Source: an uncultured Bacteroidales bacterium (GTDB taxonomy: Bacteria; Bacteroidota; Bacteroidia; Bacteroidales; SZUA-534). Taken from it: a DNA stretch of 44,693 nt. Both the position numbers and the translations under genes were made by a program. The DNA lies in NCBI GenBank assembly GCA_964419235.1, contig CAYQPP010000002.1, positions 1 to 44,693 on the forward strand. The letters are read 5' to 3'. The notes under the pieces are model-generated. The model saw nothing but the letters and a program-made list of their open reading frames with translations. It did no database searches and was not told the DNA's origin. Numbering within the stretch: the stretch's first letter is position 1; each line of letters begins with the position of its first letter. Positions 19,938 through 42,816 of this stretch are shown piece after piece.

Positions 19938-20162
19938 GTTCTCAAAATCTTGATTGTATGATTTATATTTGGTACAGATAGGTCAAATATTCAATAAGCA
20001 ACATTCAACAAACAATAATAAAGTAAAAAAACGAACTATGGTGTATTAAATTATATTACCTAATTTATTAAGCATCCGTACGATTATAGTAAATATCAAT
20101 CATTAAAAATAACACTAAAAAATACAGTTTAATGTTGAAAATTGTATATTGAGTATTGAATG
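19938..20162. repeat. Intergenic dispersed repeat, copy A (between gldE and gldD)
   Basis: Aligns in the same orientation to 35707-35886 plus 36094-36148. Shared blocks include CTTGATTG(T/G)ATGATTT, ATTCAATAAGCAAC, AACAAACAATAATAAAGTAAA, GATTATAGT, TCATTAAAAAT and AAAAATACAGTTTAATGTTGAAAATTGTA(T/C)ATTGAGT(A/G)TTGAAT. Roughly 75-85% identity by eye, with small indels. Confidence 0.7.
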
Positions 20163-20238
20163 TCATTTTTATAAATTAAGATGCGATTTAAATTGGGTAA
20201 CCCTAAAAATTAATTTTGTCGAAAAACCGGTAACAATT

Positions 20239-20832
20239 ATGCTAAGAATATTTTTTCTTTTTACCATATCGCTGATTATTGTATCGTGCCAACGCAATTA
20301 CACACCAAAGCCTCGCGGGTACTTTCGTATTGACCTACCCCAAAAAAAATATGTACAAACCCCCGATATTTTGCCATATAGCTTTGAAATTCCTGCCCAA
20401 AGCATGATTGTTAATAACCGTAAGGCAAAGCGCGAACTATACTGGATTAATATTGAATACCCTCAATATAAAGCCACAATATATTTAAGCTACAAAGAGG
20501 TTGATAACAACAATAATCTAAGCAAATATATTAATGATTCGCGCGAATTTGTTTATAAGCATACCATAAAAGCCGATGCTATTATTGAGGATGTTTACGT
20601 AAACAGCGAAAAAAACGTTTATGGTGTTAAATATGATATTAAGGGCGATGCGGCATCGAATACCCAGTTTTTTTTGACCGATAGCACAAAAAATTTTATA
20701 CGCGGGGCACTCTATTTTAATGTTGTACCAAACAAAGACTCGCTTGCTCCCGTTTTATCATATATTAACGATGATATTGTGCACATAATTGAAACTTTTG
20801 AGTGGAAACATCCAAAAACAAAAAAACGATAA
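20239..20832 (+). CDS. gldD: Gliding-motility lipoprotein GldD-like
   Basis: The internal ATG at 20239 gives MLRIFFLFTISLIIVSC (lipobox) followed by QRNYTPKPRGYFRIDLPQKKY, resembling the GldD N-terminus. Size is about 197 aa. Lies downstream of gldE. Confidence 0.6.
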   Translation: MLRIFFLFTISLIIVSCQRNYTPKPRGYFRIDLPQKKYVQTPDILPYSFEIPAQSMIVNNRKAKRELYWINIEYPQYKATIYLSYKEVDNNNNLSKYINDSREFVYKHTIKADAIIEDVYVNSEKNVYGVKYDIKGDAASNTQFFLTDSTKNFIRGALYFNVVPNKDSLAPVLSYINDDIVHIIETFEWKHPKTKKR

Positions 20833-24186: not shown

Positions 24187-26472
24187 TTAAAATAGTTCAA
24201 CCTCGATATTTTGGATAAATGCCGTATATGTATATTCATTTTGAACTTTAGCGCCTGCCAATATCATCAATACAGGGGTTTCGCTTCCATCATTGTTCAA
24301 AATATTGGTCTCTTTTCTTATGCCTATTAATTTACGTTTTTCCGAGTGGGTCAAGGTATATATCATCTCGTCCTCTTTTTCATTTTTAACCTCTTTGAAA
24401 AGTTTTTTGACATTTTGCCCAATCACATCTTTTCTTGAGTATCCCCATAAACTTTCGGCTGCACGGTTAAAGAACTCAACAATGCCGTCGTGGTTTATTG
24501 TAATAATTGCATCGTATGCCCCTTCCAGTGTTTTCTCGTTTCTAACCTTTACTTTTTCAATTTCTTGGAATTGGAGTTTAACTTCTTTTTTAGCCTCTTC
24601 GAGTCGTTTTTGTAACTCTAACTTATTGGCTTTAAGCTCATCTTCCTGCTCTTTGAGCAACTTGTTTTGCTGTTTAGTAAGCAGCTCCATCTCTTTCTGC
24701 TCGGTTATATCGTGTGCAATTGATATTATTTTTGACACTTCGCCATACATATTGAATGCGGCTGTATAAGTAACATCAAACCATTGCGTTTTTCCATTAT
24801 GCCCAATAAGTTTTGATTGTCCTTGGTATGGCTCGCCATTTATTACCTTATCCCATATTTCTTCAAATTCGTTTTGGTCATCTTCGCCAACAAAATTAAA
24901 TACGCTATAAGTTTTTAAGTCTTCGGTGGTATATCCTAAAGTATCAATAAATTTTTGGTTACAATCAATCATTCTTCCACTAGGAGCGTATATTATTTTC
25001 AATCCCGATTGGTTTATGGCTTCAATTTGTCCTTCATAATCGAGGCTTTGTTCTTTTTGTTCAGTAGTATCTATTGCTATGAAAAGGATTTTTTCGACCC
25101 CCTGCATATTATTTCTAACACAAGTGTATGTAGCCATTGTCCAAAGGTCTTTTCCTTTTTTGGTAATATGTTTCATATAACCTTCAAAGTGCTTTCCGCC
25201 CCCTGCTAATTCGTCCCAAATTTCATTAAACCACGATTTATCTTTATCGCCAATAAATATTGATATATGATGCCCCTCCACCTCGGAGTTACTACTATAA
25301 CCCATTTTTTTCAAGAATTTAGTGTTGGCGTAAAGCAAAATGCCGTTAATATCGTACTCTGCTCTAATTAATGTATGGTTTACCGAATTTGTAAAGCTGA
25401 TAAATTCTTCAGCTTGCTTGGCTGCCTCTTCTTGAGTAGCCTGCAGCTCTTCCATATTTTGCCGCATTTCTTCCTCTTGCTGGGTAAGCCTTTCGGCAGC
25501 CTCTCGCGATTCGTTTAATAAATTGGCGGTACGGATATTTATTTTTACGGTTGAATAGGTTGTTGCAATACTCTCAGCCACTTTTTCTACAAACTCAATT
25601 TTATATGGCTCAAAATAATCAAATGCTGTTAACTCAATAACTCCATAAACATCTTCATTAACTTTAAGGGGTACAATTAATAAAACATTTGGATTTGCTT
25701 CGCCTAAGCCGCTTGTTATTTCAACATAATCATCGGGGATTTCATCAATGTAAATGGTATTTTTTTCAAAAGCCGACCTGCCTATCAGCCCTTCTGACAG
25801 TTCAATCCTTTTTTTATTATACTTTTTTCTGTCGTATGCAAAATGAGCAATAAGTTCAAAATACTCATCTTCTTTTAATTCATCGTTAATTACAAATAAT
25901 CCGCCTTGTACAGCTCCTATATATCTGCACAAGTTGCTTATAAGTTCGTAACTCAACACCTCAATGTTATCATTATTATGCCTAAGTATCTCTCCGAATT
26001 TTGCTAATCCTTCAGCAATCCAATTGCGTTGTTCATCTTCTTTTTTACGTTGATTTTCCTCTTCGTAATTATTTTTTAGGCTGTTACGTAAATTAATTAA
26101 AATTTTACCAAGTTGATTTTCTTTGGCAGGTTCGTAGTCAATGTCAAGATTGCCTTTTGTCAGGTTTTCGGCAAATTCAAGCATATCGCCTGTTTTTTTT
26201 GCATTTTCTTTTTCTAAATTATCAAGTTTTGAGGCAATGTTGTAAGTAAAATAACCAACAATGTATGCTGTTATGCCAATAATAATTGGGGCGGTATCAA
26301 AAAGGTAATAATACCACCCTGATGAATGAAGTTTAAAAATGTTTTTAAATGTAAAAACCATATCGTTTGATGATAGGATTCCTATGTAAATAATAGCAAC
26401 CTCTATTATACCTAATAAAAAGCCTATAATTGAAAATTGTAGCTTAAAGTTGGTTATTCTTTTCTTTTCCAT
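24187..26472 (-). CDS. Membrane sensor: 2 TM - HAMP-like - GAF - Q/E-rich coiled coil - PAS x3, with no recognisable output domain
   Basis: 761 aa. Two N-terminal TM helices. HAMP-like LTKGNLDIDYEPAKENQLGKILINLRNSL. GAF core (GGLFVIN...VPLKVNEDVYGVIEL). Coil QQEEEMRQNMEELQATQEEAAKQAEE. Three PAS/PAC-like modules. Ends ...NIEVELF. Confidence 0.8.
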   Translation of the reverse strand: MEKKRITNFKLQFSIIGFLLGIIEVAIIYIGILSSNDMVFTFKNIFKLHSSGWYYYLFDTAPIIIGITAYIVGYFTYNIASKLDNLEKENAKKTGDMLEFAENLTKGNLDIDYEPAKENQLGKILINLRNSLKNNYEEENQRKKEDEQRNWIAEGLAKFGEILRHNNDNIEVLSYELISNLCRYIGAVQGGLFVINDELKEDEYFELIAHFAYDRKKYNKKRIELSEGLIGRSAFEKNTIYIDEIPDDYVEITSGLGEANPNVLLIVPLKVNEDVYGVIELTAFDYFEPYKIEFVEKVAESIATTYSTVKINIRTANLLNESREAAERLTQQEEEMRQNMEELQATQEEAAKQAEEFISFTNSVNHTLIRAEYDINGILLYANTKFLKKMGYSSNSEVEGHHISIFIGDKDKSWFNEIWDELAGGGKHFEGYMKHITKKGKDLWTMATYTCVRNNMQGVEKILFIAIDTTEQKEQSLDYEGQIEAINQSGLKIIYAPSGRMIDCNQKFIDTLGYTTEDLKTYSVFNFVGEDDQNEFEEIWDKVINGEPYQGQSKLIGHNGKTQWFDVTYTAAFNMYGEVSKIISIAHDITEQKEMELLTKQQNKLLKEQEDELKANKLELQKRLEEAKKEVKLQFQEIEKVKVRNEKTLEGAYDAIITINHDGIVEFFNRAAESLWGYSRKDVIGQNVKKLFKEVKNEKEDEMIYTLTHSEKRKLIGIRKETNILNNDGSETPVLMILAGAKVQNEYTYTAFIQNIEVELF

Positions 26473-26633: not shown

Positions 26634-27719
26634 TTAATATTGCAGTTTTAACACTCTGTTTGCAATTTTATCTAATGGCATAATCTCGATGGCTGCTTCC
26701 ATTTTAATTGCCTCTTTAGGCATTCCGAAAACTATACATGTTTTTTCGTCTTGTGCAATGGTATGAGCTCCTGCCTCTTTTAATTCGAGCAATCCTCGGG
26801 CTCCGTCATCGCCCATGCCTGTCATAATTACGCCAATAGCATTTTTGCCTGCATATTTTGCTGTTGAGCGAAAAAGTACGTCAACTGACGGCCTGTGCCT
26901 GTTTACTAACGGGCCGTCATTAATTTCAACAAAATAGCGTGCTCCGCTGCGCTTAAGTATTAAATGGTGGTTGCCGGGCGCTATTAAAGCGCGTCCGCGA
27001 ATTACAGTGTCGTTGTTTGAGGCCTCTTTTACTGTTACCTTGCAAAGGTCGTTTAGCCTATTGGCAAACGAACGCGTAAACTGCTCAGGCATGTGTTGCA
27101 CTATTACTACTCCCGGGCTGTCGGCAGGCAATGTTTCAAGAAACACCCTTAATGCTTCGGTACCTCCGGTTGATGCTCCTACAACTACTACTTTTTCGGT
27201 AGTTTTAAGCATGCTTTTGTTTAAGCTGCCTTTTGATATTATGGCATCGGCACTTAACTTGGGTTTTACCTCGATAGGTACAGCCGGTTTTTTTATATTT
27301 TTTTTGCGCTTTAGCTTTGCGCTTGCAGCAGCTTTAATGGCATCAATAATCCTTGTTTTCGACTCTTCGATAAACTCTTTTGTGCTAAGTTTTGGTTTTG
27401 TTATGATTTCGACAGCCCCGTATTCTAATGCTTTTATTCCGGTTTCGGTTCCGGTTTCGGTTAAGCTTGAAATAATTACTACAGGAATTGGGTGTTGAGT
27501 CATTATTTTGCGCAAAAAAGTTAAGCCGTCCATTCGTGGCATTTCAATATCGAGTGTAATAACATCGGGGACTTCATGTGCTATTTTGTTGGCGGCAAAA
27601 TATGGGTCGGCAGCTACTCCCATTACTTCAATAAGTGGATCATGCATTAATATACTGCTGAGCGTTTGTCGAACTACAGCCGAATCGTCAACTATTAAAA
27701 CTTTTATTTTTTCGTTCAT
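26634..27719 (-). CDS. cheB: Chemotaxis response regulator protein-glutamate methylesterase
   Basis: 361 aa. Receiver (VLIVDDS...[12 protein letters not shown]...) plus methylesterase motifs [33 protein letters not shown]. Confidence 0.92.
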
Positions 27720-27720: not shown

Positions 27721-28218
27721 TTATTGCCGTTGTTTTTGGATGAGTTTCATTAGTACTACTCCCGTTTCGGTATTAAAACGTATTTTTCGTCCTAAAGTAC
27801 CTCCTACACTTTGTCCTGTTATTTTTATTTTGTTTTCTTTTAGAGCCTTTATTGCTATTTCGATATTTCGTTCGCCAATTTTAAATATATTGGTTTTTGA
27901 TTCAACAATTTCGCCCCCGCCAAATACTTTAGCTTGCAGGTTAGTTGGTTTTGAACCAAAATTTATCATTTTTTCAATAAGTTTTTGGATAGCTATGTTG
28001 CCATATTTTGGCGATGCCAACCCTGTACCGTTCCAAAATGGCAACATATAATGGTTTATTCCTCCTATTTTTTTTACGGGATCGTACAGGCATACGGCCA
28101 CGCATGAGCCCAAAATAGTATCTACCAAAAATGGGGTTTCATCAGCAAACAGGGCTGATGGGTACAAAAAATGTGTATTTATTTGGCTATTAGAAGATTC
28201 CATCCTCATTGTCATCAA
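27721..28218 (-). CDS. cheD: Chemoreceptor glutamine deamidase CheD
   Basis: 165 aa. [48 protein letters not shown]. The start is uncertain (Met at 28218, 28215, 28209 or 28203). Overlaps the upstream kinase-like gene by 14-29 nt. Confidence 0.85.
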
Positions 28219-29089
28219 AAATAAATTCGTTTCCGTCTAAGGCATATCCTTCGGTATCGCTAATTTCTGATTGTGGTATTGATACCGTAAATACTGACCC
28301 TATATTTTGTTTGCTTACTATCTCTATTTTCCCGTCTAATATGTCAATTAGGGCTTTTGTTACCGACAACCCGAGACCGTGCCCCGGGTTTAATGAGTTT
28401 ATTGAGGTGTCGATTCTTTTAAATCGGTCGAAAATAGTGGCAAGGTTTTTTTTGTTTATGCCAATGCCATAATCTTTAACCGATACTTTTAATGTGTCAT
28501 CCTCAACCCAGCCATTAACTTCGATACGGTTTGCGGCATTACTGTATTTAATTCCGTTATTAAGCAGGTTTGATATTATAAGCCTCAATTTTTCGGGGTC
28601 GGTTTTAAAAAAGCAGGCTTCTTTTAATTTTTTATCGAGCTTAAACGAGAAATTTATTTTAAGCTGTTTTTGCTCGGCTTTATATTCATATGCGCTTATT
28701 ACACTACCAATTAATAGGTTAATGTCGGTTTTAATAAATTCGGGGAATGCTTCGCCCGCCTCAATGCGTGCTGCTGTAAATATATTTTTTAACTGAAAAT
28801 CAAGTTCAAAGGCTTCGGAATGTATCAATTCGGCCATGTTTTTAATTTTCTTGATATCAATATCTTTTGCTGCGATTATATTTTTTGACAACCCCAATAT
28901 TGAAGCAAATGGGTTAACTATTTCATTTGTTATGTTTGAAATAAAATGGCTTTTTAGGGCTTCTGATTCAGTTAGTTTTTCGTTTACCAGCTTTAATTCG
29001 TCACGTTGTTTACCTATTGTTTTGTAGCAACCGGCAGCTTCCTTGAGCTTTAATTTAAGTTCTTCAATAAATTCTTTATCTGACAGCAT
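28190..29089 (-). CDS. Soluble HisKA/HATPase_c protein lacking the phospho-acceptor histidine (His->Asn)
   Basis: 299 aa with no TM or sensor domain. DHp H-box reads KSHFISNITNEIVNPF where the other kinases in this window read FLSNMSHEIRTPM and GVAHEINNPI. N-box LLNNGIKYS, G1 DYGIGI, F FDRF and G2 GHGLGLS are intact. Confidence 0.8.
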   Translation of the reverse strand: MLSDKEFIEELKLKLKEAAGCYKTIGKQRDELKLVNEKLTESEALKSHFISNITNEIVNPFASILGLSKNIIAAKDIDIKKIKNMAELIHSEAFELDFQLKNIFTAARIEAGEAFPEFIKTDINLLIGSVISAYEYKAEQKQLKINFSFKLDKKLKEACFFKTDPEKLRLIISNLLNNGIKYSNAANRIEVNGWVEDDTLKVSVKDYGIGINKKNLATIFDRFKRIDTSINSLNPGHGLGLSVTKALIDILDGKIEIVSKQNIGSVFTVSIPQSEISDTEGYALDGNEFIFDDNEDGIF

Positions 29090-29099: not shown

Positions 29100-29951
29100 T
29101 TATGTTTTTATAAATACTGTTGGTTTTATATTTTTTAAAGGCACTTTCATGTTAGTAATTGATTCGGAGTGCCCTAAAAAGAAATAGCCTTTGGGGTTTA
29201 ATTTGCTACATAATTTATTAATTACCTGCTCTTGGTTTTCTCTTTCGAAATAGATGAGTGCGTTTCGGCAAAATATAATATCAAACATTTCATTAACGTT
29301 ATAATTTGTGTCCATAAAATTTAACCGTTGAAATTTCACTCTATCTCTAAGCACTTTATTAACCCTGACTTTTGGGTCGGTACGGTTTTTTGATTTTTGA
29401 AAATATTTCTTTTTTAAGTTAAGCGGAATAATTTCAATGCGTTCTTCTTTATAAATGGCATTAGCTCCTTGTTGCAGCATTTGGGTAGATATGTCGGTGC
29501 CAATTATCTCAAAATCGAAGCCGAGGTTTTTTTCTTTAAATTCGTTTAAAACAATGGCAAGCGTATAGGGTTCTTCGCCCGATGAACAGCCTGCGCTCCA
29601 AACTTTTACTCTTCTAATTCCTTTATTATTGAACAGATCGGGTAAAATATCATCTGTTAATACCTCAAAGTGTATTGGCTCGCGATAAAAATCGGTTTTG
29701 TTTGTGCTAACTACATCCATCATGTGTATAATCTCGTTTTTGCCCTCTTTGCTAAAAACAAAGTCAACATATGTTTTATAATCGGGCATTTGGAGTTTTC
29801 GCAACCGCTTTTGTAGCCTTCCCTGTAAAACTATTCTTTTTGCAGGGGGCATTTTTATTCCATAGTTTATTTGAATGAATTGGCTTAATTTATTAAATTC
29901 TTTGTCTGATAAAGAGGTGTTATAAATACTATTGCTTAATATGCTATCCAT
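29100..29951 (-). CDS. cheR: Chemotaxis protein methyltransferase CheR
   Basis: 283 aa. N-terminal helical CheR_N-like region. SAM-binding VWSAGCSSGEEPYTLA and IFCRNALIYF. Confidence 0.9.
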   Translation of the reverse strand: MDSILSNSIYNTSLSDKEFNKLSQFIQINYGIKMPPAKRIVLQGRLQKRLRKLQMPDYKTYVDFVFSKEGKNEIIHMMDVVSTNKTDFYREPIHFEVLTDDILPDLFNNKGIRRVKVWSAGCSSGEEPYTLAIVLNEFKEKNLGFDFEIIGTDISTQMLQQGANAIYKEERIEIIPLNLKKKYFQKSKNRTDPKVRVNKVLRDRVKFQRLNFMDTNYNVNEMFDIIFCRNALIYFERENQEQVINKLCSKLNPKGYFFLGHSESITNMKVPLKNIKPTVFIKT

Positions 29952-29977
29952 AAATAGATTAAAATAGATTATTTTAG

Positions 29978-30520
29978 TTATGCATTATTTGTTTCTGCAT
30001 CAATTTTTTCAATATCCTCCTTCTCTAATTTTTCAACATCTTTGGTTATAAGCAACTCGGTTGTGCTAAAAATAAGGTCGATATTTAGGAGCATAATAAA
30101 GCCTTTGTCTAATTTATACATGCCTTGTATAAATTCGGTTTTGTATTTTGTTCCTATGGCCGGCGACTCTTCAATTTCGCTATCTTTTATTTCTAAAACC
30201 CTGTCAACCGTATCAACTAATATACCGAGTTGTATATTCTCTTGGTCGATTATAATATTAAGCACAATAATGCAGGTGTTTTTTGTAAACTCCGTTGCCT
30301 CCATTCCAAATTTAATACGCATATCAATTACCGGTAATACGTTGCCTCGAAGGTTAATAACCCCTCTCATGTAATTGGGCGAATTGGGTACTTTTGTAAT
30401 GGGCTTTAATTCTAAAATAGTTAAAACCTTTGCTACATTAACTGCAAAAAACTCTTTATTCAGTTTAAATGATAAAAAGGTAGATACATTATCTACGGTA
30501 TCTAATATATTCTCATCCAT
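29978..30520 (-). CDS. cheW: Chemotaxis coupling protein CheW
   Basis: 180 aa. FLSFKLNKEFFAVNV...VPNSPNYMRGVINLRGNVLPVIDMRIKFG is a typical CheW domain. Confidence 0.9.
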   Translation of the reverse strand: MDENILDTVDNVSTFLSFKLNKEFFAVNVAKVLTILELKPITKVPNSPNYMRGVINLRGNVLPVIDMRIKFGMEATEFTKNTCIIVLNIIIDQENIQLGILVDTVDRVLEIKDSEIEESPAIGTKYKTEFIQGMYKLDKGFIMLLNIDLIFSTTELLITKDVEKLEKEDIEKIDAETNNA

Positions 30521-30522: not shown

Positions 30523-32571
30523 TTAACCTCCAATTTTAATTTCGTTGCTGGCAAAATCCGATATAAGTTTATTTGTATCCATAACAAGCGCAACTGAGCC
30601 GTCGCCTAATATTGTGGCTCCTGATATTGACTGTTGATTTTTGTACATTTTACCAAGAGGTTTTAATACTGCTTGATACTGACCTATTATATTGTCAACC
30701 GACAATCCTATTTTTGTTTCGCCGTATTGCACTACTACAACATGCTCGGTTTCTTGTGCTTCGCCTTCAATTTCAAACAGCTTGCGCATGTTAAGGTGGG
30801 CAATTTCGGTATCTTCTGTCCTTATTAAATGGTTTACGGCATTTTCAAGTACCGAATGTTTAAATTCGTAACATTTATCGACCGACGATAATGGTATCAC
30901 AAATTTGGTGTCGCCTAATTGTACTAGCAATCCATCAATTATTGATAGTGTTAACGGCAATTTTATTGTTATAGTTGTCCCTTTGTTTATTGTTGAGTCA
31001 ATTTCAACCTCGCCCCTAATTTCGGCTATTTTGCGTTTTACCACATCCATGCCTACCCCACGTCCTGAGACTTTTGTTATTTTTTTGGCTGTTGAGAAAC
31101 CGGGTTGAAAGAGCAGGTCGAATATTTCTTTATCTGACAGTTCTGCTTCGGGAGCTATCAACCCTTTTAAAATTGCTTGGGTTTTTATTTTTTCGGGGTC
31201 GATACCTTTGCCGTCGTCGGATATTTGGATTACCACGCTTGTGCCTGAATAAAAAGCTTTTAATAGTATGGTTGCCCGTTTGGGTTTGCCTATGCGTTGG
31301 CGTTCGTCGGCATTTTCGATACCGTGATCCATGCTGTTTCGTACGATATGCATAAGCGGATCGGCCAATATTTCAATAATATTTTTATCGAGCTCGGTTT
31401 CGGTGCCTTCGGTTTTAAACACTACTTCTTTGCCCATCTCTTGCGATAATTCTCTAACCAGCCTGTGAAATCGCGTAAGCATATTTTCGATTGGTATTAG
31501 CCTTATGCTAAAAACATCGTCGCGCAAGCGGCGCGAAATTTTTTCTACCTCTTCAACAATAGGCATCAATTCTGCAGTTTCGGTTTTGGTGGCAAAAAGG
31601 CTCAGGCGTGCTTGTATTGTTATAAGCTCGCTTACCCAATTAATCAGGTTGTCTAACTTGTCTGACGATACTCTAATGCTGCTTATACTTGTTTTTGCTT
31701 TGTTGTCGCCAAATTTTTGTGCTTGTTTTTCTTGTTCTTTCGAAAATACTTTTTCTAACTCTTGTGTTAATAAAAGCAGTTGGTTAACGTCAACCTTTTT
31801 TTGGTTGCTGATGGTTTCTTCTATTATCCCGATAAATGACGGCTCCTCCAAAAGGTTTATTTCGGCAACTTTATGCACGTTTAAATCGCATTGGTCGTCG
31901 GCAAAAATAAAAACCTCGCCAACGGCGTTTATGCCTTGGTTGGTTGCCAAAAATATGTCCCAATACACATAGCATTTTGTAGGGTCCATGCTGTTGCTAT
32001 CGGGCAATTTGTCAAACCTCGGAAATACTTTTATCTCGCCTAATTCATATAGTTCATCAATTAGGTACAATGGGTTTGTTCCAAATTTAAAGATATTATC
32101 GTGTGGAATAAAACTGATGTAATAGGTTGACAAGTTTTTGTTTTTTCGTGCATCAATATGCTGTATGGTAGCGCCAACATCTTGTGCAACAACATTTTCG
32201 TCAATAATGTCTATTATTTTTGTCAATAGCAAATCGTGCTGTACTTGATGGGCAGAATCGGCATCGTCTTCTTCGTGTATCAGGTTGCGCAAATGATCTA
32301 CCGATGCCAAAGTAACATTAAGTATGTCGTCGTTTATGGCAAGTTTCTTGTTTCGGATTAAATCATATATATTCTCGAGGTGGTGTGTAAATTTATCCAT
32401 TTTTTTAAACCCAAACATGGAGCTGCCACCTTTAAGTGAGTGCATAACCCTGAACACCTGTTCTATTATTTCAGGATTCTCCTGATTGCCATCGAGTTCA
32501 AGCAGCGATTTTTCGAGATCGTTGATTAAATCATTGGCTTCCTCTATAAATTTTTCTCTGAATTTATCCAT
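30523..32571 (-). CDS. cheA: Chemotaxis histidine kinase CheA
   Basis: 682 aa. Hpt MHSLKGGSSMFGF, dimerisation IRVSSDKLDNLINWVSELI, HATPase DPLMHIVRNSMDHGIE, DDGKGID, GRGVGMDVV, and a C-terminal CheW-like P5 domain. Confidence 0.93.
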   Translation of the reverse strand: MDKFREKFIEEANDLINDLEKSLLELDGNQENPEIIEQVFRVMHSLKGGSSMFGFKKMDKFTHHLENIYDLIRNKKLAINDDILNVTLASVDHLRNLIHEEDDADSAHQVQHDLLLTKIIDIIDENVVAQDVGATIQHIDARKNKNLSTYYISFIPHDNIFKFGTNPLYLIDELYELGEIKVFPRFDKLPDSNSMDPTKCYVYWDIFLATNQGINAVGEVFIFADDQCDLNVHKVAEINLLEEPSFIGIIEETISNQKKVDVNQLLLLTQELEKVFSKEQEKQAQKFGDNKAKTSISSIRVSSDKLDNLINWVSELITIQARLSLFATKTETAELMPIVEEVEKISRRLRDDVFSIRLIPIENMLTRFHRLVRELSQEMGKEVVFKTEGTETELDKNIIEILADPLMHIVRNSMDHGIENADERQRIGKPKRATILLKAFYSGTSVVIQISDDGKGIDPEKIKTQAILKGLIAPEAELSDKEIFDLLFQPGFSTAKKITKVSGRGVGMDVVKRKIAEIRGEVEIDSTINKGTTITIKLPLTLSIIDGLLVQLGDTKFVIPLSSVDKCYEFKHSVLENAVNHLIRTEDTEIAHLNMRKLFEIEGEAQETEHVVVVQYGETKIGLSVDNIIGQYQAVLKPLGKMYKNQQSISGATILGDGSVALVMDTNKLISDFASNEIKIGG

Positions 32572-32936
32572 TATCGTACAACTTTATTTATTGCTGCTAA
32601 AAGTTTTTCGGGTACAAAAGGCTTTATTATCCAGCCTGTTGCTCCGGCTTCTTTTGCTTCCATTTTTTTTGCCGTTTGCGACTCTGTGGTCAAAAACAGA
32701 ATGGGAACAAATTGATAATCGGCATTTGCCCTTACATTTTTAATAAATTCTATGCCATTCATATTGGGCATGTGCAAGTCGGTAATTATCAAGTCAAACT
32801 TGGTTTTGTCAAGAAATTTTAAGGCGTCTTGTCCGTCAATGCCTTTTGAAACTTCATGTCCTGCATTCTCAAGGGTAAAGCTTACTACCTCACGAATACT
32901 TTCTGAATCGTCAACTATAAGTATTTTCTTTCCCAT
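32571..32936 (-). CDS. cheY: CheY-like single-domain response regulator
   Basis: 121 aa. KILIVDDS, DLIITDLHMPNMNG, LFLTTES, IIKPF. Its stop overlaps the cheA start by 1 nt. Confidence 0.9.
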   Translation of the reverse strand: MGKKILIVDDSESIREVVSFTLENAGHEVSKGIDGQDALKFLDKTKFDLIITDLHMPNMNGIEFIKNVRANADYQFVPILFLTTESQTAKKMEAKEAGATGWIIKPFVPEKLLAAINKVVR

Positions 32937-32954: not shown

Positions 32955-33266
32955 TTAATTAATTGTATTGGCAAATCCTGCTCTTTTAAACAGCTCTAAT
33001 GTTTCGTTATTTATGCCGAGGTCTATTTTTATTTCGATGTTCGACTCTTGGCACATTTGTTTTAATCCTACTAAGTATTGAACCAGCGATAAATCGGCAT
33101 CATCGACCTCGGATATTTTCAGGTTTACTTTTTTGCTGTTTTTAATAGCAGAGCTTAATTCCTTTTTGATTCCCATAATATTGGAAACATTCAAATACCC
33201 TTGCACCTCGATATCAAGCGCCTTGGTTTTTTTGTTTTTTGATGAGTTAATTCGATACTCTTTCAT
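32955..33266 (-). CDS. STAS-domain protein (anti-sigma-factor-antagonist fold)
   Basis: 103 aa. LDIEVQGYLNVSNIMGIKKEL...VNLKISEVDDADLSLVQYLVGLKQ...IEIKIDLGINNETLELFKRAGF fits the STAS beta-alpha pattern. The DSSG-type phospho-Ser motif reads DLSL. Confidence 0.7.
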   Translation of the reverse strand: MKEYRINSSKNKKTKALDIEVQGYLNVSNIMGIKKELSSAIKNSKKVNLKISEVDDADLSLVQYLVGLKQMCQESNIEIKIDLGINNETLELFKRAGFANTIN

Positions 33267-33304: not shown

Positions 33305-35110
33305 TTAAAACAGTTCAATGTCGTTATCATCAATGTTATATGGAATGCTGTCGGACTCGTTTAACAGTTCGTCAACGCTTTTTCCGGTATCCGTAAGTTT
33401 GGCGTGTATATCGCGCTCGCTTTTCATGGTATATAGTTTTTCAATCTCCTTAAGGTACTTTTTGTTATCGCCCAAATTGCTTTTTAATGAATCGTAATTT
33501 ACTATTTTGTTAATTTCGTTTAATAAGGATACAATCTCTTCAACTGTTATCTTAAAATACGTGTAATACTCTATTTTCTTTAATGATAATGTTATTTCAT
33601 CCGATATTTTGGTGCTCAACAAAGCATATTCTTTAGTTTTCTGTTTTATTTGGCCTGTTTTGTCCGAAAGGTTATCTATTGATTTTTTATCAATATAATA
33701 ATTTTCACTTCGAGGTTTAAAGGTATCAAAAATATTTGTTAAAAACTTAATATTTTGAGTAATACTGTTAAGATGTGTTTTTAAAGAGTTTGAATTAACC
33801 TGTAAATCAGAGAATAAGTCTTTTATCCTGCGGGTAAGCTCTTTTCCGAAATTTTTGCCGTTTGCACGCATAAGCGATTCAAAATTATGAACCTCTTTTC
33901 GCAATGCCTTTTCATTCAAAAATATGGTATTATATTCATTTTTCAGGTTGTTGTAATCACTTTTCAGTTGGCTGATTTTAACGGTTGCTTTTTTTCGGTT
34001 TTCAGTAAGTTTTTCAAAATATCCCGAAAAAACACCTTGAGCCGCAACAATTTGGTTTATTGTGTTGCTATCAAATTTGTAGGCATTTTCATGTATTGAG
34101 CTGTATATTGAATGTAATGCCTTCATTTCATTGCCTACCTCGATAAGCTGGTTTGTTATTTTTTCAATTGATGTTTGATAATCTTTATTTGTATATAGGA
34201 GTTGTGCTACTTGTATGTCGGTAATTTCGGGTATTTTTACTATTAACTGCAATTGATCGTCGGTATTTTGCTCCGATTTGTTTATACTCTTTATTTCGTT
34301 TATCAGCTTATTTTGCGATGTTTGTATATGCTCCATTTTTTGCCTTATAATATCGTGGTACTGAATGTTTGTAATAACCTCGCCCATGTAGGCAAAACAC
34401 TTTTGTGTACGGCTGTTTAAGTCTGACACAAAACTTTCGGGCAAATAACTGTCTGATGATATTTTTTTAAATATGTTTATTGCTTTTCTTATTTCGTTGT
34501 TTAGTTTTGAGCTGCTTAAATTCTCGATTAGACAGGTGTTGTTTTTTAAATATGTAATTTGCTTTGACACCGATTCTGTATTCGTGTCGATTTTTTCTAT
34601 CTGATTATATATTTTCTCGATACTGCTTTCAATTGACTCAACACTTTTTTGTAATTCGTTTTTGTTTGACAGCTCAACATAATTAAGATGCAGTTTTAAA
34701 TTGGCAAGTATGTATTTTAAGGTAATGAGGTTTTGTTTAAAATTATTAAAAGGCACAACCAACAAATCAATTGAGGAGTATATTTGGGTAAGCAGGTCAA
34801 TAACGTTATTTATATTAGAGTCGGTTTCGCTTATCAGTTTTACCTGCATTGCGTTTTTATCGTTTATGTCACTTTTTATGACAGGTAAATCGTTATTAAT
34901 AAATACCGATATAACACTATTTGCATCTGAAATTTCTTTAATGTTTTTGTAATACTGCTTTAATAGCTTATTAAAATATAAAAAGTCTTTTGACGAAATG
35001 GTATGTAGCGAACTGATTTTAGTATCAATATCGCTCAGCTTATTAATAATTTCGTTACGTGGAAAATTATTTAAAAAATTATTTAGTATATTGTTGTCGA
35101 CTTTACCCAT
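33305..35110 (-). CDS. 601-aa soluble, predominantly helical/coiled-coil protein of unknown function; first gene of the Che-like operon
   Basis: Long uninterrupted ORF with N/K/I/E/S-rich heptad-like sequence and no TM segment. No MCP tip motif. Contains NIQYHDIIRQKMEHI (D253-x3-Q257). Acidic tail ...VDELLNESDSIPYNIDDNDIELF. Confidence 0.6.
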   Translation of the reverse strand: MGKVDNNILNNFLNNFPRNEIINKLSDIDTKISSLHTISSKDFLYFNKLLKQYYKNIKEISDANSVISVFINNDLPVIKSDINDKNAMQVKLISETDSNINNVIDLLTQIYSSIDLLVVPFNNFKQNLITLKYILANLKLHLNYVELSNKNELQKSVESIESSIEKIYNQIEKIDTNTESVSKQITYLKNNTCLIENLSSSKLNNEIRKAINIFKKISSDSYLPESFVSDLNSRTQKCFAYMGEVITNIQYHDIIRQKMEHIQTSQNKLINEIKSINKSEQNTDDQLQLIVKIPEITDIQVAQLLYTNKDYQTSIEKITNQLIEVGNEMKALHSIYSSIHENAYKFDSNTINQIVAAQGVFSGYFEKLTENRKKATVKISQLKSDYNNLKNEYNTIFLNEKALRKEVHNFESLMRANGKNFGKELTRRIKDLFSDLQVNSNSLKTHLNSITQNIKFLTNIFDTFKPRSENYYIDKKSIDNLSDKTGQIKQKTKEYALLSTKISDEITLSLKKIEYYTYFKITVEEIVSLLNEINKIVNYDSLKSNLGDNKKYLKEIEKLYTMKSERDIHAKLTDTGKSVDELLNESDSIPYNIDDNDIELF

Positions 35111-35286: not shown

Positions 35287-35679
35287 ATGCCAAAGCCATT
35301 ATTACTAATTGTTGATGATATTTTTGTAAACAGGATACTATTATCTGAGATTGCATCTGAAATAGGCTGCGATTGCAAGGTTGCCAACAATGGCAAAGAG
35401 GCAATTAAGCAACTGGAGGATCAACCGTTTGATATAGTTTTAATGGACATTGAAATGCCTGTTATGAACGGATTGGAAACTACAAAATATATAAGGAGCA
35501 AAATGGATTCATCAGTTTCAAAAATGCCTATAATTGCTTTAACAGCACATAACCCCAACGACTTTTTTGATGAATTTAACACTGCCGGTTTTGACGAGTT
35601 GATAACAAAACCCTATTTAATTAAAAAGATAAAAGAGGTTGTTGATAGGTTTTATGTTAACAAAGAGGCTGCCAAATAA
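35287..35679 (+). CDS. Single-domain response regulator (receiver only)
   Basis: 130 aa. LLIVDD, DIVLMDIEMPVMNG, IALTAH, ITKPY. Confidence 0.85.
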   Translation: MPKPLLLIVDDIFVNRILLSEIASEIGCDCKVANNGKEAIKQLEDQPFDIVLMDIEMPVMNGLETTKYIRSKMDSSVSKMPIIALTAHNPNDFFDEFNTAGFDELITKPYLIKKIKEVVDRFYVNKEAAK

Positions 35680-36272: not shown

Positions 36273-37781
36273 TTATGCCAACTTATATGGAACGGTAAAA
36301 TAAAAGGCCGATCCTTTACCTTTTTCAGATTTTACTGATATTGAACCACCCATTAACTCGGTATTTTCTTTTGCAATTGATAAGCCAAGCCCCAAACCCC
36401 CATACTCTTTTGATAAATGTTTTTCGGCTTGCGAAAAGCGTTCAAATATTATTTGTTGTTTCTCAGTGTCAATGCCAATACCCGAATCTTTTACATAAAA
36501 CAGAATGTTTTGGTTATTTTGTAAAGAGTACCCTATTTCAATACAGCCCGAATTAGAGTATCTTAAAGCATTGTCAATTAAGTTGTTAAAAACTTTACGA
36601 AGTTTCGACTCATCAACCATAATAGTTGATTCATTATCGGCTAACCCATAATTTACATTTAAAGGCGTTTTATTTTCTTTAGCTTGTTTTTCATACAAAG
36701 TAAATAGCTCTAACAATAAGCTGTTTAAGTTTAAAGGTTTATTAATAACCTTAACCTGTTTAGTTTCTAACTTTGATATTTCGATAATATCTTCAATTAT
36801 TCGTAAAAGCTGATTGCCGCTATTTTTAATTATACTTATATAAAATTTTTGTTGCTCGGCATCAAGGTTGTTGCTTTCAAGCAAATCGGCAAAACCCATT
36901 ATTCCATTCATGGGGGTTCTAATCTCATGGCTCATATTGGACAAAAACTCCGATTTTAGCAAATCGCTCTCTTCAGCTCTCTTTTTTGCAATTAATAGCT
37001 CCCTGTTTTTTTCTATTAGTGCGTTTTCTGTCTTTTTACGATCGGTTAAATCTCTAAAAATCGATATATAGTATTTGTTCTCTAATAGTGTTGTGTTCAT
37101 TTCAATGGGAATAATACTGCCGTCGTTTCTCAACAACTCCCTTTCAACAATAATAGCTTTTCCCGATAGCACCTTATCGTAACGCAAAGGGTGCTTATTA
37201 AGTGAGTTTTTAGAGAATATATTTTCGATTCGTTTATTTATTACCCCATTACGGTTACACCCTATCATATTTAAAATACGACTGTTAACATCAACCATAT
37301 TGCCTTTTAAATCTCCTATGATTATACCATCGCCTGCATTTTCAAAAAGGGTTTTAAACTTATTTTCTTGTTCGCGTATTAGGTTTTCGGCTTCTATCCT
37401 TTTTGTAATATCGTGAATAATAACAAGCCGTGCATCTTTTCCTTTATACGAAATATTTTTTGCGTTAATCTCAACAGGAAATGTAGTACCGTTTTTGCGC
37501 AACGCCGTAACCCTATAAAAGCCTACATACTTTTGTTTAACCTTCTCTAAAATTATCTTTTTGCTATCGTCAACAAATGCATCAATCGACTGCAAACCAA
37601 CCATCTCCTCATACGGATATCCATACATTTTGCAGCCTACATTATTGGCTTCAATAACATATCCGTTTTCGGTAAGGAAAATCCCTTCGGTAGCTGTTAA
37701 GTCAATTATTTTGCACCAGTTTTTCTCTTTCAACATGGCATTTACTTGGTCAATATCATTTTTGTCAAGCCTGTTATCCAA
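36273..37781 (-). CDS. PAS-PAS sensor histidine kinase (soluble)
   Basis: 502 aa. Two PAS modules. H-box FLSNMSHEIRTPMNGIMGF, N-box NLIDNALRYS, DSGIGI, GGLGLGLSI. Confidence 0.88.
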   Translation of the reverse strand: MDNRLDKNDIDQVNAMLKEKNWCKIIDLTATEGIFLTENGYVIEANNVGCKMYGYPYEEMVGLQSIDAFVDDSKKIILEKVKQKYVGFYRVTALRKNGTTFPVEINAKNISYKGKDARLVIIHDITKRIEAENLIREQENKFKTLFENAGDGIIIGDLKGNMVDVNSRILNMIGCNRNGVINKRIENIFSKNSLNKHPLRYDKVLSGKAIIVERELLRNDGSIIPIEMNTTLLENKYYISIFRDLTDRKKTENALIEKNRELLIAKKRAEESDLLKSEFLSNMSHEIRTPMNGIMGFADLLESNNLDAEQQKFYISIIKNSGNQLLRIIEDIIEISKLETKQVKVINKPLNLNSLLLELFTLYEKQAKENKTPLNVNYGLADNESTIMVDESKLRKVFNNLIDNALRYSNSGCIEIGYSLQNNQNILFYVKDSGIGIDTEKQQIIFERFSQAEKHLSKEYGGLGLGLSIAKENTELMGGSISVKSEKGKGSAFYFTVPYKLA

Positions 37782-39950: not shown

Positions 39951-40218
39951 TCTTTTATTTAGACAATTTCAATTAATTGAATCATTCATTTTATTCACAT
40001 TTTGTTAATAAAATGCTTTAAAGTTTAAATAGTTTTTGTGCAAACGCTAAATTTATATGTTGTAGTTATTGCAACATAACGTGCTATGTGCATTTAGTGT
40101 TAAGCAGCAAAAAGAAAATTTTATAGAATAATTACGAAATAAACTTGAAAATAGCTATCTTTTGAGGCATTTTAAAATAATTCAAACATTATAACCTAAA
40201 TTGAGCGATTCCAAACTA

Positions 40219-42816
40219 ATGTTTAAGCTTTTTTTTATATTAATATTTTTATTAAGCTTTTGGTTTAATGCTGTATCACAAACCTCCGAATCGAAGGTTA
40301 AAGCAGAGTTGATTTATAGGTTTTCTCAATATATTGAGTGGAAAAACGAACCCTTAATTGATACATTTAGGTTTGGGTTGTTAACTAATGATTCTACACT
40401 TATCAGTGAATTTAAAATTATCACTAAATCAACAAATCTAAGGTCAAAGCCTATAAAAGCTTTTGTTTTTGATGAAATTGCCAATTTTGAAACCATGCAT
40501 TGTATTTTTATTGATTATGGTTTTAGGAGGCATATGGCCGAGGTTGCGAGTTTAACAAAAAGAAAAGGGGTATTGTTAATTACATATAACACGCCCGATT
40601 TATTGCTAACCATGATAAATATTTATAAGTCAAAAAAAGAGATGACTTTAAAATATGTTGTCAATAAACAAAATTTAGATGAAGATAACTTTATTTATAA
40701 ACCAGAGCTATTGCTTTATGGTGGTAGTTTGGTTGATATTAAGGAGCTATACATTTCAACTAATAAAAAATTAAGTACAAAAAACAAAGAGCTTGATTCA
40801 ATTAACCGAAATTTGATTGAATTAAAAGAGAAGAGTGCTGAATACAAAACTCAAATTGAGCAAATGTCGTTACACAAACTCACAATGTTGCAACAGGTTA
40901 ATGAAAAAGAGTTAGAGGTGGCAAGGCTTAACAGCGAAATCAGCATTAAGGATTCAAGCTTGAGTAAAAGGAATATTGAACTTCAAACCCAAAAGGAGTA
41001 TAGAAAATTATTATCGAATAAGATTAAAGATAAAATGGATTCTATAGTATTAAAAGAGAGCAACTTAAAGGAGTTAAGCATACTATTGAGCGAGAAAAGA
41101 GATCTGATTTCTGAAAATCAACTATTAATTGATGAACAGCACTTGAAAATTGAGACTCAACAAAAAGGATTGTTAGTAGCTACTGTCTTTACTTTTACGT
41201 TAATTATAATTGTTCTGTTGGTAGTAATAGCACTTAGAACAAAAAAACGGTTAGCAAAGCGATTGGAATATTTGGTTGACATTAGAACAAAAGAACTTAA
41301 TAAAAGCAAGCAATACTACTTTAGTATTTTTGAGAATTCACCGGTTTCAATTTGTGAATTCGACCTATCGCTATTGGTTGATTATCTTAAAAAAAACAAG
41401 ATAAAATTACAAAACGGTAAGTATGCTTTACCCGACAAGCTGATTTTAAAGGCTGTTAAATTAATAAAAATAACAGATGCCAATTTTAAAACCTTAGAGC
41501 TGTATAATGCCAGCAGCAAACATGAATTTATAAAAAAATACGATCAGCTTTTTAATCAAGAATCAGTTGCAGGGTTAAAAAAACTTTTTGAAAAACTGCT
41601 TAATGAGGAAAAACAGTTTGAATTTGAGATAACAAGGATATCTTTAAAAAAAGAGATTAAACATTTGCTGCAAAGTTTTATCGTTTTGCCCGAAGACGAA
41701 GGAAAATATACAAATGTACTTGTATCGATGCTTGATATAACCGACTTGAAAATGTATGAACATGAAATAATTCGTCATCGCGATCATCTTGAAGAGCTGG
41801 TAAAAGAGCGTACAAAAAAAATTGTTGAATTAAACAGCTACTTGTCAAATGCAAACGACGAGCTGCAAAGCAAAAATGAAGATCTATCGGAAAAAAACAA
41901 CCTGTTAAATAAGCAGCAGGGCGAAATATCGGATCTGAACAGCGAACTGATTGAAACCAATACGCAACTTGAGGAGCAAAAAGAGGAGTTGTTGAACACG
42001 TTGTTGCAATTAAAAGATACGCAAATGCAGCTTGTTGAATCGGAAAAAATGGCTTCGCTTGGTATGCTTACCGCCGGAGTAGCGCATGAAATAAACAATC
42101 CTATTAATTTTATCAGCTCGGGAAACCAAGCCTTAGAGATGCTTTTTGACGACATGTGGGATAAGATTGACAATTTTAGGTTTTTGAACAGCGACTCGGC
42201 TTTAGAGTTGGTTGAAAGGGTAAAAGAGTTCTCGAAAGAGGTTGACAACGAGAATTATAAAATAACCATTAAAGAGATAATAGGAAACATTAAAATGGGC
42301 GTTACCCGAATTACCGAGATTGTCGGCAGCCTCCAAAAATACTCATCGAAATCGGAAATAGACACAACCCCTTTTAGTATTAACGACTGCATTAACGATG
42401 CCTTGGTAATTCTAAAAAATAGATATAAATATAAGGTTGAAATTGTAAGGCTTTTTGGCGATACCCCTTTAATTATCTCATCATTAGGTAAGCTCAATCA
42501 GGTTTTTGTCAATATTTTTTCAAATGCATTTGATGCAATAATTGAAAAAGGGGTTGTAAAGGTAACCACCTCCTATAAAAAAAGCGATAATGTTGTAGAG
42601 GTTATTATAAGCGACAATGGCATAGGGATAAACGAAGATGACCTAAACAAAGTTTTTGACCCGTTTTTTACAACAAAAGAAACCGGAAAAGGTACAGGTT
42701 TGGGAATGTACATCTCTTATGGCATTATTAATCAATTGAAGGGTACTATAAAATTTGAATCAAAAGTTGGCGAGGGGACAAAAGTTATTATTGAATTACC
42801 AATAAAATTGCAGTAA
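40219..42816 (+). CDS. Sensor histidine kinase with periplasmic YfiR/DUF4154-like domain and long periplasmic coiled coil
   Basis: The ATG at 40219 (track start is the TTG at 40201) gives the signal peptide MFKLFFILIFLLSFWFNAVSQ. VKAELIYRFSQYIEWKN resembles the YfiR/DUF4154 signature. A coiled coil of about 140 aa precedes one TM (LLVATVFTFTLIIIVLLVVIAL). Then a PAS-like segment, another coil, H-box GVAHEINNPINF, N-box NIFSNAFDA, DNGIGI, GTGLGMYIS. Confidence 0.8.
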   Translation: MFKLFFILIFLLSFWFNAVSQTSESKVKAELIYRFSQYIEWKNEPLIDTFRFGLLTNDSTLISEFKIITKSTNLRSKPIKAFVFDEIANFETMHCIFIDYGFRRHMAEVASLTKRKGVLLITYNTPDLLLTMINIYKSKKEMTLKYVVNKQNLDEDNFIYKPELLLYGGSLVDIKELYISTNKKLSTKNKELDSINRNLIELKEKSAEYKTQIEQMSLHKLTMLQQVNEKELEVARLNSEISIKDSSLSKRNIELQTQKEYRKLLSNKIKDKMDSIVLKESNLKELSILLSEKRDLISENQLLIDEQHLKIETQQKGLLVATVFTFTLIIIVLLVVIALRTKKRLAKRLEYLVDIRTKELNKSKQYYFSIFENSPVSICEFDLSLLVDYLKKNKIKLQNGKYALPDKLILKAVKLIKITDANFKTLELYNASSKHEFIKKYDQLFNQESVAGLKKLFEKLLNEEKQFEFEITRISLKKEIKHLLQSFIVLPEDEGKYTNVLVSMLDITDLKMYEHEIIRHRDHLEELVKERTKKIVELNSYLSNANDELQSKNEDLSEKNNLLNKQQGEISDLNSELIETNTQLEEQKEELLNTLLQLKDTQMQLVESEKMASLGMLTAGVAHEINNPINFISSGNQALEMLFDDMWDKIDNFRFLNSDSALELVERVKEFSKEVDNENYKITIKEIIGNIKMGVTRITEIVGSLQKYSSKSEIDTTPFSINDCINDALVILKNRYKYKVEIVRLFGDTPLIISSLGKLNQVFVNIFSNAFDAIIEKGVVKVTTSYKKSDNVVEVIISDNGIGINEDDLNKVFDPFFTTKETGKGTGLGMYISYGIINQLKGTIKFESKVGEGTKVIIELPIKLQ

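Follow-up and report, generated by a model that had tools for sequence, protein, structure and literature searches.

What does a protein built like a histidine kinase do in a chemotaxis operon when the histidine that should accept the phosphoryl group has been replaced? This question is raised by a stretch of 44,693 nucleotides (hereafter, the window) from an uncultured Bacteroidales bacterium (GenBank assembly GCA_964419235.1, contig CAYQPP010000002.1, positions 1 to 44,693 of the forward strand), in which a gene for a 299-aa histidine-kinase-like protein, designated HKL, lies between cheR and cheD on the minus strand. HKL carries an asparagine, Asn55, in the phospho-acceptor column, and the alignments described below indicate that this substitution is an ancient, selected trait of a whole protein family. 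The gene is paired with cheD wherever downstream sequence was available, and the protein is tentatively read here as a phosphatase for phosphorylated CheY (CheY-P) that works with the receptor deamidase CheD.

The acceptor column and the conserved surface of HKL

HKL is composed of an N-terminal coiled coil, a DHp domain, a CA domain and an acidic tail (Table 1). An earlier reading of the DNA that used the letters and their translations alone (the sequence-only reading) had described this open reading frame and had given Asn55 with the codon AAT and a histidine at position 48; the frame is real, beginning at an ATG, codon 55 is indeed AAT, and codon 48 is CAT. The H-box of HKL is KSH48FISNITN55EIVNPF, and those of the two comparison kinases in the window, FLSNMSHEIRTPM (36273-37781) and TAGVAHEINNPI (40201-42816), are as that reading had given them. 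A profile of HKL aligns with HK853 at an E-value of 1.4e-36 and without a gap in the H-box, so that Asn55 corresponds to His260, Glu56 to Glu261, Asn59 to Thr264 and His48 to Glu253; HK853 is also the best sequence match in the PDB, and GacS and WalK align with the profile as well. The AlphaFold2 model (pLDDT of 75.7) contains a canonical DHp hairpin and a CA domain, with a single helix over residues 4-73 followed by a helix over residues 79-110. The top structural matches of this model in Foldseek are HK853-RR468 complexes (E of about 1e-17), and DivL and RetS are found among the matches, not ahead of ordinary kinases. In Pfam, HATPase_c covers residues 164-273 (E 8.5e-24), HisKA (18.7 bits, cut-off of 26.9 bits) and HATPase_c_2 (20.4 bits, 5.4e-4, cut-off of 27.4 bits) stay below their thresholds, and nothing else was matched. 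The lack of a transmembrane segment and of a sensor domain was likewise borne out, since the maximum Kyte-Doolittle value over 19 residues is 1.05 and no sensor domain was matched in Pfam. NCBIfam gave generic kinase models only, far under their cut-offs (PnpS, 156 against 400 bits), and no curated family for HKL.

Three sets of relatives were aligned. The close relatives are the top 118 near-full-length sequences among 2626 protein-search matches (51-85% identity, approximately 300 aa), derived from Salinivirgaceae, Marinilabiliales and other Bacteroidota. An exhaustive profile search over 1.84 billion cluster representatives placed approximately 148 further HKL members at the top (E < 1e-76), and 144 of these, which represent 50%-identity clusters and show 35-53% identity to the query, were aligned (hereafter, the representatives). 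The third set, seeded by a distant member, comprises 70 sequences, with members such as Geobacter sp. FeAm09, Oryzomonas sagensis and Desulfuromonas as well as Nitrospirae (the Geobacter/Nitrospirae clade). Two long proteins, P0155 (2017 aa) and P0269 (855 aa), were rejected as members, as they are ordinary multi-kinase proteins with a canonical His that scored via summed domains.

The acceptor column is Asn in all 118 close relatives, in 142 of the 144 representatives (one Ser, one Cys and no His) and in all 70 members of the Geobacter/Nitrospirae clade. In total, the 330 aligned relatives from Bacteroidota, Geobacter/Desulfuromonadales and Nitrospirae have 328 Asn, one Ser and one Cys, and orthologues with His in this column, which the sequence-only reading had named as grounds for its own refutation, did not appear among them. 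Because His is absent from all 330 and Asn is kept in all but two, the pattern goes far past chance and argues for selection for Asn itself instead of decay, and the substitution is, on this comparison, an ancient family trait. A sequencing error or a strain-specific mutation at codon 55 is excluded by the family-wide retention of Asn55. Deamidation of Asn55 to Asp by CheD was also considered and judged unlikely, because no relative encodes Asp in the column; deamidation sites in receptors alternate Gln and Glu among orthologues.

No conserved substitute acceptor takes the place of the lost histidine. His48, which the sequence-only reading had offered as a shifted acceptor, is present in 112 of the 118 close relatives, whereas among the representatives position 48 is His in 67, Asn in 36, Gln in 17 and other residues in the rest, and its consensus in the Geobacter/Nitrospirae clade is Asn. 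Moreover, 31 of the 144 representatives have no His at all between positions 40 and 112, no other DHp histidine is conserved, and no Ser, Thr or Tyr in the domain is invariant. By this alignment evidence the DHp domain of the family holds no conserved phospho-acceptor of any kind, and His48, being unconserved and accompanied by DHp domains free of His, fails as a family mechanism.

In contrast to the acceptor, the rest of the transmitter is strongly retained. Among the representatives, E56 is kept in 136, N59 in 141 and P60 in all 144, and all three are invariant in the Geobacter/Nitrospirae clade. Across the representatives, the mean frequency of the majority residue is 0.67 in DHp helix 1, 0.64 in helix 2 and 0.46 in the CA domain. 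The equivalents of the HK853 specificity residues (S63, G66, L67, L88 and S91) are nearly fixed among close relatives, as would be expected if this surface continues to bind a conserved partner such as the operon CheY, itself 67-90% identical across loci; N36 and L39 in the N-terminal helix are invariant in the same set. The N box (SNLLNNGIKYS), G1 box (DYGIG), F box (FDRF) and G2 box (GHGLGL) noted earlier are all present. Across the representatives, N178, G236 and G240 are invariant, N174 and G208 occur in 143, R222/F223 in 142-143, and G238 of the G2 box is essentially invariant as well. The G1 aspartate D206 (window 28472-28474), which contacts adenine, is retained in 127 and replaced by Asn in 16, and the lineages with Asn may have weakened nucleotide binding. 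The tail is predicted to be disordered (pLDDT below 50 over residues 285-299), but ends in Phe in 117 of 118 close relatives, 80 of 80 genome loci and 228 of 261 members of the wider family, and its N287 and F291 are invariant in the Geobacter/Nitrospirae clade.

Pairing with cheD and the F7-type cluster

In the window, HKL starts 10 nt past the cheR stop and its end lies 14-29 nt inside cheD, the overlap varying with the choice of cheD start (the TTG at 28218 or an ATG down to 28203), exactly the spacing described in the sequence-only reading. That reading had placed HKL correctly in a che operon and coupled it correctly to cheD, and had overlooked the universal link to cheD, the C-terminal tail and the F7 type of the operon. 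To compare loci, 80 were fetched from GTDB representatives, nearly all of Bacteroidota, and 79 of them include downstream sequence. The order CheR-HKL-CheD-CheB is recurrent, as in Labilibacter sediminis, Alkaliflexus imshenetskii, Geofilum rubicundum, Plebeiibacterium marinum and Saccharicrinis. HKL is immediately followed by cheD in 79 of 79 genome loci and in all eight distant members, whereas cheR lies upstream in 74 of the 80 Bacteroidota loci and, among the distant members looked up, in P0231 only. The distant loci show the orders CheD-HKL-CheD, CheR-CheB-HKL-CheD, MCP-HKL-CheD, MCP-CheR-HKL-CheD-RR and STAS-CheY-CheA-CheR-MCP-CheW-HKL-CheD-CheR-CheB (MCP, methyl-accepting chemotaxis protein; RR, response regulator). 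Since all other neighbours vary and cheD is constant, the conserved genomic unit is the HKL-CheD pair. The GC content is 56-62% in the distant loci versus 35% in the window, a gap indicating that the pair spans unrelated lineages. In one distant locus (L081:3041-6167), the genes downstream of HKL-CheD encode an EAL/HDOD protein and a hemerythrin, and cheD is the sole che gene on the 9-kb contig; this arrangement suggests that, away from a classical che operon, the pair can be wired to cyclic di-GMP or to the sensing of oxygen.

The operon of the window reads, on the minus strand, X601 (a 601-aa protein), STAS, CheY, CheA, CheW, CheR, HKL, CheD, CheB and a protein with a transmembrane segment, a GAF domain and three PAS domains (TM-GAF-3xPAS). 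The oldest F7 order comprises an anti-sigma antagonist, cheY, cheA, two cheW genes, an aer2-like MCP, cheR, cheD, cheB and an mcpA-like receptor (PMC7184735). The Bacteroidota clusters match it gene for gene, including the two cheW genes in Marinilabiliaceae loci, with HKL as an extra gene between cheR and cheD. They thus resemble the ancestral stage 1/2 F7 clusters of the Gammaproteobacteria Vibrio cholerae (cluster III), Pseudomonas aeruginosa (Che2) and Shewanella oneidensis (Che1), which share the order STAS-cheY-cheA-cheW(-cheW)-[MCP]-cheR-cheD-cheB-[tail-bearing membrane protein]. The best match of the operon CheY in the PDB is 4H60 (E 5.8e-37), an entry that bears the name 'Chemotaxis protein CheY' and which we take to be CheY4 of the V. 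cholerae F7 cluster. The clusters differ from their proteobacterial counterparts, for which the order described places no gene between cheR and cheD (PMC7184735), and the mcpA slot after cheB is filled in the window by the TM-GAF-3xPAS protein, whose Pfam matches include no output domain (MCP signalling, kinase or GGDEF). This protein is retained in 52 related loci. Many loci encode an MCP bearing an xYxxF pentapeptide, either in the cheW-cheR interval or upstream of the STAS gene. No recognisable MCP was found in the operon of the window, where cheW and cheR are adjacent (gap 29952-29977). In related loci, a membrane protein of approximately 567 aa with a classical pentapeptide-like end, EYENF or NYEKF (L005:7238-8941, L027:3318-5024), occupies the aer2 position or lies upstream of the STAS gene.

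The C-termini provide a further connection to F7 systems. Three proteins of the operon, HKL (28193-28207), X601 (33308-33322) and the TM-GAF-3xPAS protein (24190-24204), end in an acidic-(I/V/L)-F-COOH tail, a feature absent from the remaining che proteins of the loci. The conserved C-terminal motif of McpA-like receptors in gammaproteobacterial F7 clusters is listed as EVELF, DIELF, DLELF or EIELF (PMC7184735, supplementary table 12). The ends of the TM-GAF-3xPAS protein (EVELF; Phe in 52 of 52 orthologues, tail [ES]V[ED]LF) and of X601 (DIELF; Phe in 24 of 25) are identical to it, and the HKL tail is a close variant. The shared tails point to a common docking partner. From the gene order and these motifs, the operon is assigned to the F7-like chemosensory clusters. 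No Pfam match to CheC, CheX or CheZ was obtained in the window open reading frames scanned or in nine related loci, for which the annotation was precomputed. Stage 1/2 F7 clusters of Proteobacteria have no cheZ either (PMC7184735). In Geobacter genomes, cheD outnumbers cheC, and the 'E. coli-like Type 2' clusters hold cheD and uncharacterised non-che genes (PMC2577667).

A proposed CheD-partnered phosphatase and competing explanations

All biochemical activities of HKL considered here are deduced; the observations behind them are the family-wide loss of the acceptor, the pattern of conservation, the fold, linkage to cheD and an F7-type gene context. Because the DHp domain is conserved, E56, N59 and P60 are kept, cheD is an invariant neighbour and CheC, CheX and CheZ gave no match, HKL may be a functional analogue of CheC/CheX derived from a histidine kinase, i.e., a phosphatase for CheY-P and possibly for the receiver of CheB that works with CheD. 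This reading is tentative and is given somewhat less than an even chance. Of the three options in the sequence-only reading, the first, a pseudo-kinase scaffold or phosphatase, is the best supported, given that E56-x-x-N59-P60 and the DHp domain are the most conserved parts and that the gene is paired with cheD.

The chemistry has precedents. Phosphatase activity of HisKA proteins requires the Thr/Asn that follows the His by four positions, whereas the adjacent Glu is required for the kinase only (PMC3510030). The half-life of phosphorylated CrdA was 0.7 min with wild-type CrdS, 47.6 min with N375A, 2.6 min with H371A and 53.5 min without enzyme, and the phosphatase activity of EnvZ is likewise independent of the His (PMC3510030). 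The phosphatases CheX/CheC and CheZ use an acid and an amide on a helix, in the form of ExxN and DxxxQ, respectively (PMC3510030). HKL keeps E56-x-x-N59 and, where the His used to be, has a further amide that is invariant. As for the partner, CheD binds CheC, and does so more strongly with CheY-P present (PMC3513319), and a passage of PMC5318424 that cites Moon 2016 states that CheD enhances CheX. cheC adjoins cheD in Bacillus and Thermotoga, as HKL does elsewhere.

In the proposed mechanism, HKL would dimerise through its DHp hairpin, as its homologues do, and a phosphorylated receiver, most likely the operon CheY, would dock onto the conserved side of DHp helix 1 in the manner of the HK853-RR468 complex. 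Asn59, aided by Glu56 and Asn55, would position the water that hydrolyses the aspartyl phosphate, as suggested by the motif conservation and by published HisKA mutagenesis. HKL would then be kinase-negative and phosphatase-positive, following the same acid/amide logic as the ExxN of CheX/CheC and the DxxxQ of CheZ. With Asn in place of His, it could neither autophosphorylate nor take phosphate back from the regulator, and the reaction would run only towards hydrolysis. The nucleotide site of the CA domain may be kept as a cofactor site, structural or allosteric in role, through which a phosphatase-competent conformation is maintained, which is the weakest step of the proposal. The acidic tail with its terminal Phe would tether HKL to a docking site common to the two other tail-bearing proteins of the cluster. 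Finally, in view of the invariant gene adjacency, HKL would act with CheD as CheC and CheX do, linking the level of CheY-P to the availability or activity of CheD.

Several points weigh against this proposal. The equivalent of E56 is dispensable for the phosphatase activity of CrdS (PMC3510030), so that its conservation here requires a CheX-like role to be assumed. Substitution of His by Ala strongly diminishes phosphatase activity in both HK853 and PleC; the residue is thus not dispensable in every kinase. Every ATP-binding box of HKL is conserved, for which a pure phosphatase has no obvious need. X601, with an invariant DxxxQ in a long helix and a similar tail, could itself be a CheY-P phosphatase. 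The unit of HKL, CheD, EAL/HDOD protein and hemerythrin has no receiver gene within approximately 5 kb, and the tie there is therefore to CheD instead of demonstrably to CheY. The interface positions of HKL are invariant in the 80 fetched loci, leaving no covariation between HKL and CheY to read.

HKL could alternatively be a non-catalytic adaptor of the DivL kind, in which the DHp domain binds CheY-P or CheD without hydrolysis and relays a conformational change, possibly a nucleotide-dependent one, to CheD, receptors or CheA; this is rather unlikely. The loss of the acceptor with DHp and CA domains conserved is what DivL displays, DivL and RetS appear among the structural matches, a passage of PMC4211667 describes the repurposed kinase domain of DivL as sensing the phosphorylation state of a response regulator, and the invariant cheD link would suit a regulatory complex. 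However, N59 and E56 are residues that are catalytic in HisKA and CheX phosphatases, where mere binding would tolerate more variation, and HKL is nearer to HK853 (1e-36) than to DivL (4e-22). A further proposal, in which HKL would use ATP to phosphorylate something other than a His, such as a Ser/Thr of the STAS protein or a site on CheD or on some other partner, is improbable. It could draw on the conservation of all ATP boxes and Glu56, on the STAS gene conserved in Bacteroidota clusters, on a 7TMR-DISM-PAS-PP2C phosphatase encoded at 10872-13442 and on the anti-sigma antagonists and serine phosphatase of proteobacterial F7 stage 1 clusters (PMC7184735), but the STAS protein itself argues otherwise. 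Its gene lies directly upstream of cheY in approximately 55 loci, and its profile can be aligned gap-free with RsbV, TM1442 and SpoIIAA; the phospho-Ser position after the invariant Asp is hydrophobic in 55 of 55 (L 30, I 14, V 6, M 5), and the next residue is T in 36, S in 11, G in 7 and V in one. The STAS protein of the che operon is thus probably not regulated by canonical Ser phosphorylation. The eight variants that lack Thr/Ser at this second position as well all occur beside intact HKL ATP boxes, and a correlated loss of the two features was accordingly rejected. Five of the eight distant loci have no STAS gene nearby in the DNA available, two of these contigs being only 2-3 kb long. HKL shares a GHKL ATP-binding domain and proximity to a STAS gene with RsbW/SpoIIAB, but differs from them in its full DHp domain, its CA domain of the HATPase_c type (8.5e-24 versus 5.4e-4 for HATPase_c_2) and a STAS protein that has no phospho-Ser and is not co-conserved with it; furthermore, the most conserved domain is the DHp, not the CA, and the DHp offers no invariant Ser, Thr or Tyr. 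The RsbW/SpoIIAB-like kinase on STAS put forward in the sequence-only reading is therefore disfavoured, and a role of this type is unlikely.

Two explanations would restore phosphorylation of a histidine. A split kinase, in which the CA domain of HKL phosphorylates a His on another helical protein (H252 or H261 of X601, a DHp heterodimer partner or the P1 domain of CheA), would make sense of a CA domain that looks competent without an acceptor and of an X601 that has an HDxxxQ-like motif, an invariant His261, no CA domain and the same tail. It is nevertheless very improbable, given that X601 is missing both from loci of the Marinilabiliaceae type and from every distant locus in which HKL-CheD persists, that its H252 is Gln in 12 of 22 genome-locus orthologues and that no homology between X601 and any DHp domain was detected. 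The idea of an ordinary kinase with a register-shifted acceptor is scarcely credible: His48 does precede position 55 by one heptad and is common in close relatives, but beyond the family counts given above, canonical kinases have Glu at this column (KSEF), which is not near the ATP lid. A bolder version of the phosphatase reading supposes that HKL is a new class of chemotaxis accessory protein that replaced CheC, its invariant S51-N52-x-x-N55-E56-x-x-N59 face both hydrolysing CheY-P and capturing CheD as an uncleavable Asn-Glu mimic of the Gln/Glu-Glu deamidation/methylation site of receptors. ATP or ADP in the CA domain would pick the partner, adaptation, in the form of CheD availability, would be coupled to CheY-P and the nucleotide state of the cell, and the tail would recruit HKL to the site of the receptor-like proteins of F7 systems. 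We regard this extension as a long shot.

HKL has features in common with several known systems. With the phosphatase mode of HK853-RR468, EnvZ and CrdS, HKL shares homologous DHp and CA domains, the E/D-x-x-T/N-P motif, the docking positions and the nucleotide boxes; unlike these bifunctional HisKA kinases, it has no acceptor His, so that no autokinase or phosphotransfer activity would be possible, and no sensor or transmembrane segment, and it adds a conserved acidic tail with a terminal Phe, along with an obligate genomic pairing with cheD. With CheC/CheX/FliY and CheD it shares an ExxN on a helix, a gene adjoining cheD and a cluster without another recognised CheY-P phosphatase, whereas its fold is DHp and CA instead of the CheC alpha/beta fold, with an ATP-binding domain and no CheC/CheX match in Pfam, so that the likeness would be one of function only. 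Pseudo-kinases such as DivL (Tyr at the acceptor site), RetS, PsmA and RedE are likewise histidine kinase scaffolds with the acceptor lost or unused that are kept for interactions; HKL departs from them in its strongly selected ATP boxes and phosphatase motif, its invariant Asn, its CheD context and a similarity to DivL weaker than that to ordinary kinases. There are precedents for pseudo-histidine kinases, for the phosphatase chemistry of transmitters and for pairs of CheC/CheX with CheD, each taken singly, while the literature searched contained no description of a widespread and ancient, Asn-substituted, sensor-less HisKA family with intact ATP boxes that is locked to cheD in F7-like clusters.

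If the phosphatase reading is right, HKL would be a missing component of F7-type and other CheC-less, CheD-containing pathways, in which output and signal termination are at stake in Vibrio, Pseudomonas, Shewanella, Geobacter and gliding Bacteroidota. A natural and ancient histidine kinase that is kinase-negative and phosphatase-positive would also provide a clean test of the need for the His, a matter of long debate, and of the role of the ATP domain in transmitter phosphatase chemistry. The source annotations name HKL relatives 'sensor histidine kinase' or 'HAMP domain-containing histidine kinase'. Since HKL proteins would be unable to autophosphorylate on His, these labels on hundreds of them are almost certainly wrong.

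X601 and other features of the window

Table 1. Coordinates of HKL, its parts and the genes of the che operon in the window.
Feature	Position	Strand	Basis or remark
TM-GAF-3xPAS protein, 761 aa, ends EVELF	24187..26472	-	Pfam
cheB, receiver and methylesterase	26634..27719	-	Pfam
cheD, receptor deamidase, catalytic GSC...NH motif	27721..28218	-	Pfam CheD 7.4e-28
HKL, histidine-kinase-like protein without acceptor His, 299 aa	28190..29089	-	Open reading frame, ATG start
HKL residues 273-299, disordered acidic tail	28193..28273	-	DGNEFxF, then C-terminal [DE][DE]E[IV]F-COOH
HKL residues 119-272, CA domain	28274..28735	-	N box 28541-28570, G1 box 28460-28474, G2 box 28367-28384, F box
HKL residues 41-112, DHp helical hairpin	28754..28969	-	Most conserved region of the family
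E56-I-V-N59, HisKA phosphatase motif E/D-x-x-T/N	28913..28924	-	Same form as CheC/CheX ExxN
Asn55 codon AAT, phospho-acceptor column	28925..28927	-	Aligns with HK853 His260
His48 codon CAT, alternative acceptor proposed earlier	28946..28948	-	Unconserved across the family
HKL residues 1-40	28970..29089	-	N-terminal helix running into DHp helix 1, signalling-helix-like coiled coil
cheR	29100..29951	-	Pfam; stop 10 nt before HKL start
cheW	29978..30520	-	Pfam
cheA	30523..32571	-	Pfam
cheY	32571..32936	-	Pfam
STAS-domain protein without canonical phosphorylatable Ser	32955..33266	-	Pfam STAS 3e-8
X601, 601 aa, predicted all-helical, operon head, ends DIELF	33305..35110	-	Open reading frame

X601 gave no Pfam or NCBIfam match, and its 88 homologues are nearly all unannotated or hypothetical. 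Q250, D253, Q257, K258 and H261 are invariant within a long helix, in the motif Q250-[YF]-[HQ]-D253-I-I-R-Q257-K258-M-E-H261, which resembles the DxxxQ of CheZ or the HDxxxQ of HisKA_3. Further invariant residues are Y515, Y516, Y560 and T561, and H569 is nearly invariant. The AlphaFold2 model consists of very long helices; Foldseek on this model returned nothing below an E-value of 0.001, and a profile search of the PDB gave coiled-coil noise and a weak match to a Thermotoga MCP only. A relationship to CheZ was rejected, because the comparison with E. coli CheZ, for which an approximate query sequence was used, was insignificant (probability of 0.4%, E 0.15).

A single-domain response regulator is encoded divergently at 35287..35679 on the plus strand, and a similar receiver adjoins X601 in many loci (among them L002, L004, L005 and L089). 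This regulator may be a member of the pathway and an alternative target of HKL. The 7TMR-DISM, PAS and SpoIIE/PP2C serine phosphatase mentioned above, a typical partner-switching input, is encoded on the minus strand approximately 14 kb from the che operon. Genes for gliding-motility lipoproteins lie a few kb away from the operon in the window (GldD, 20149-20832, plus strand) and in a related locus (GldH, L089:18336-18803), and no flagellar gene was seen. The kinase at 40201-42816 (plus strand), of 871 aa, has an N-terminal periplasmic domain similar to YfiR/HmsC (DUF4154), an unusual sensor module, and is followed by a gene for a single-domain receiver at 42841-43209 on the minus strand.

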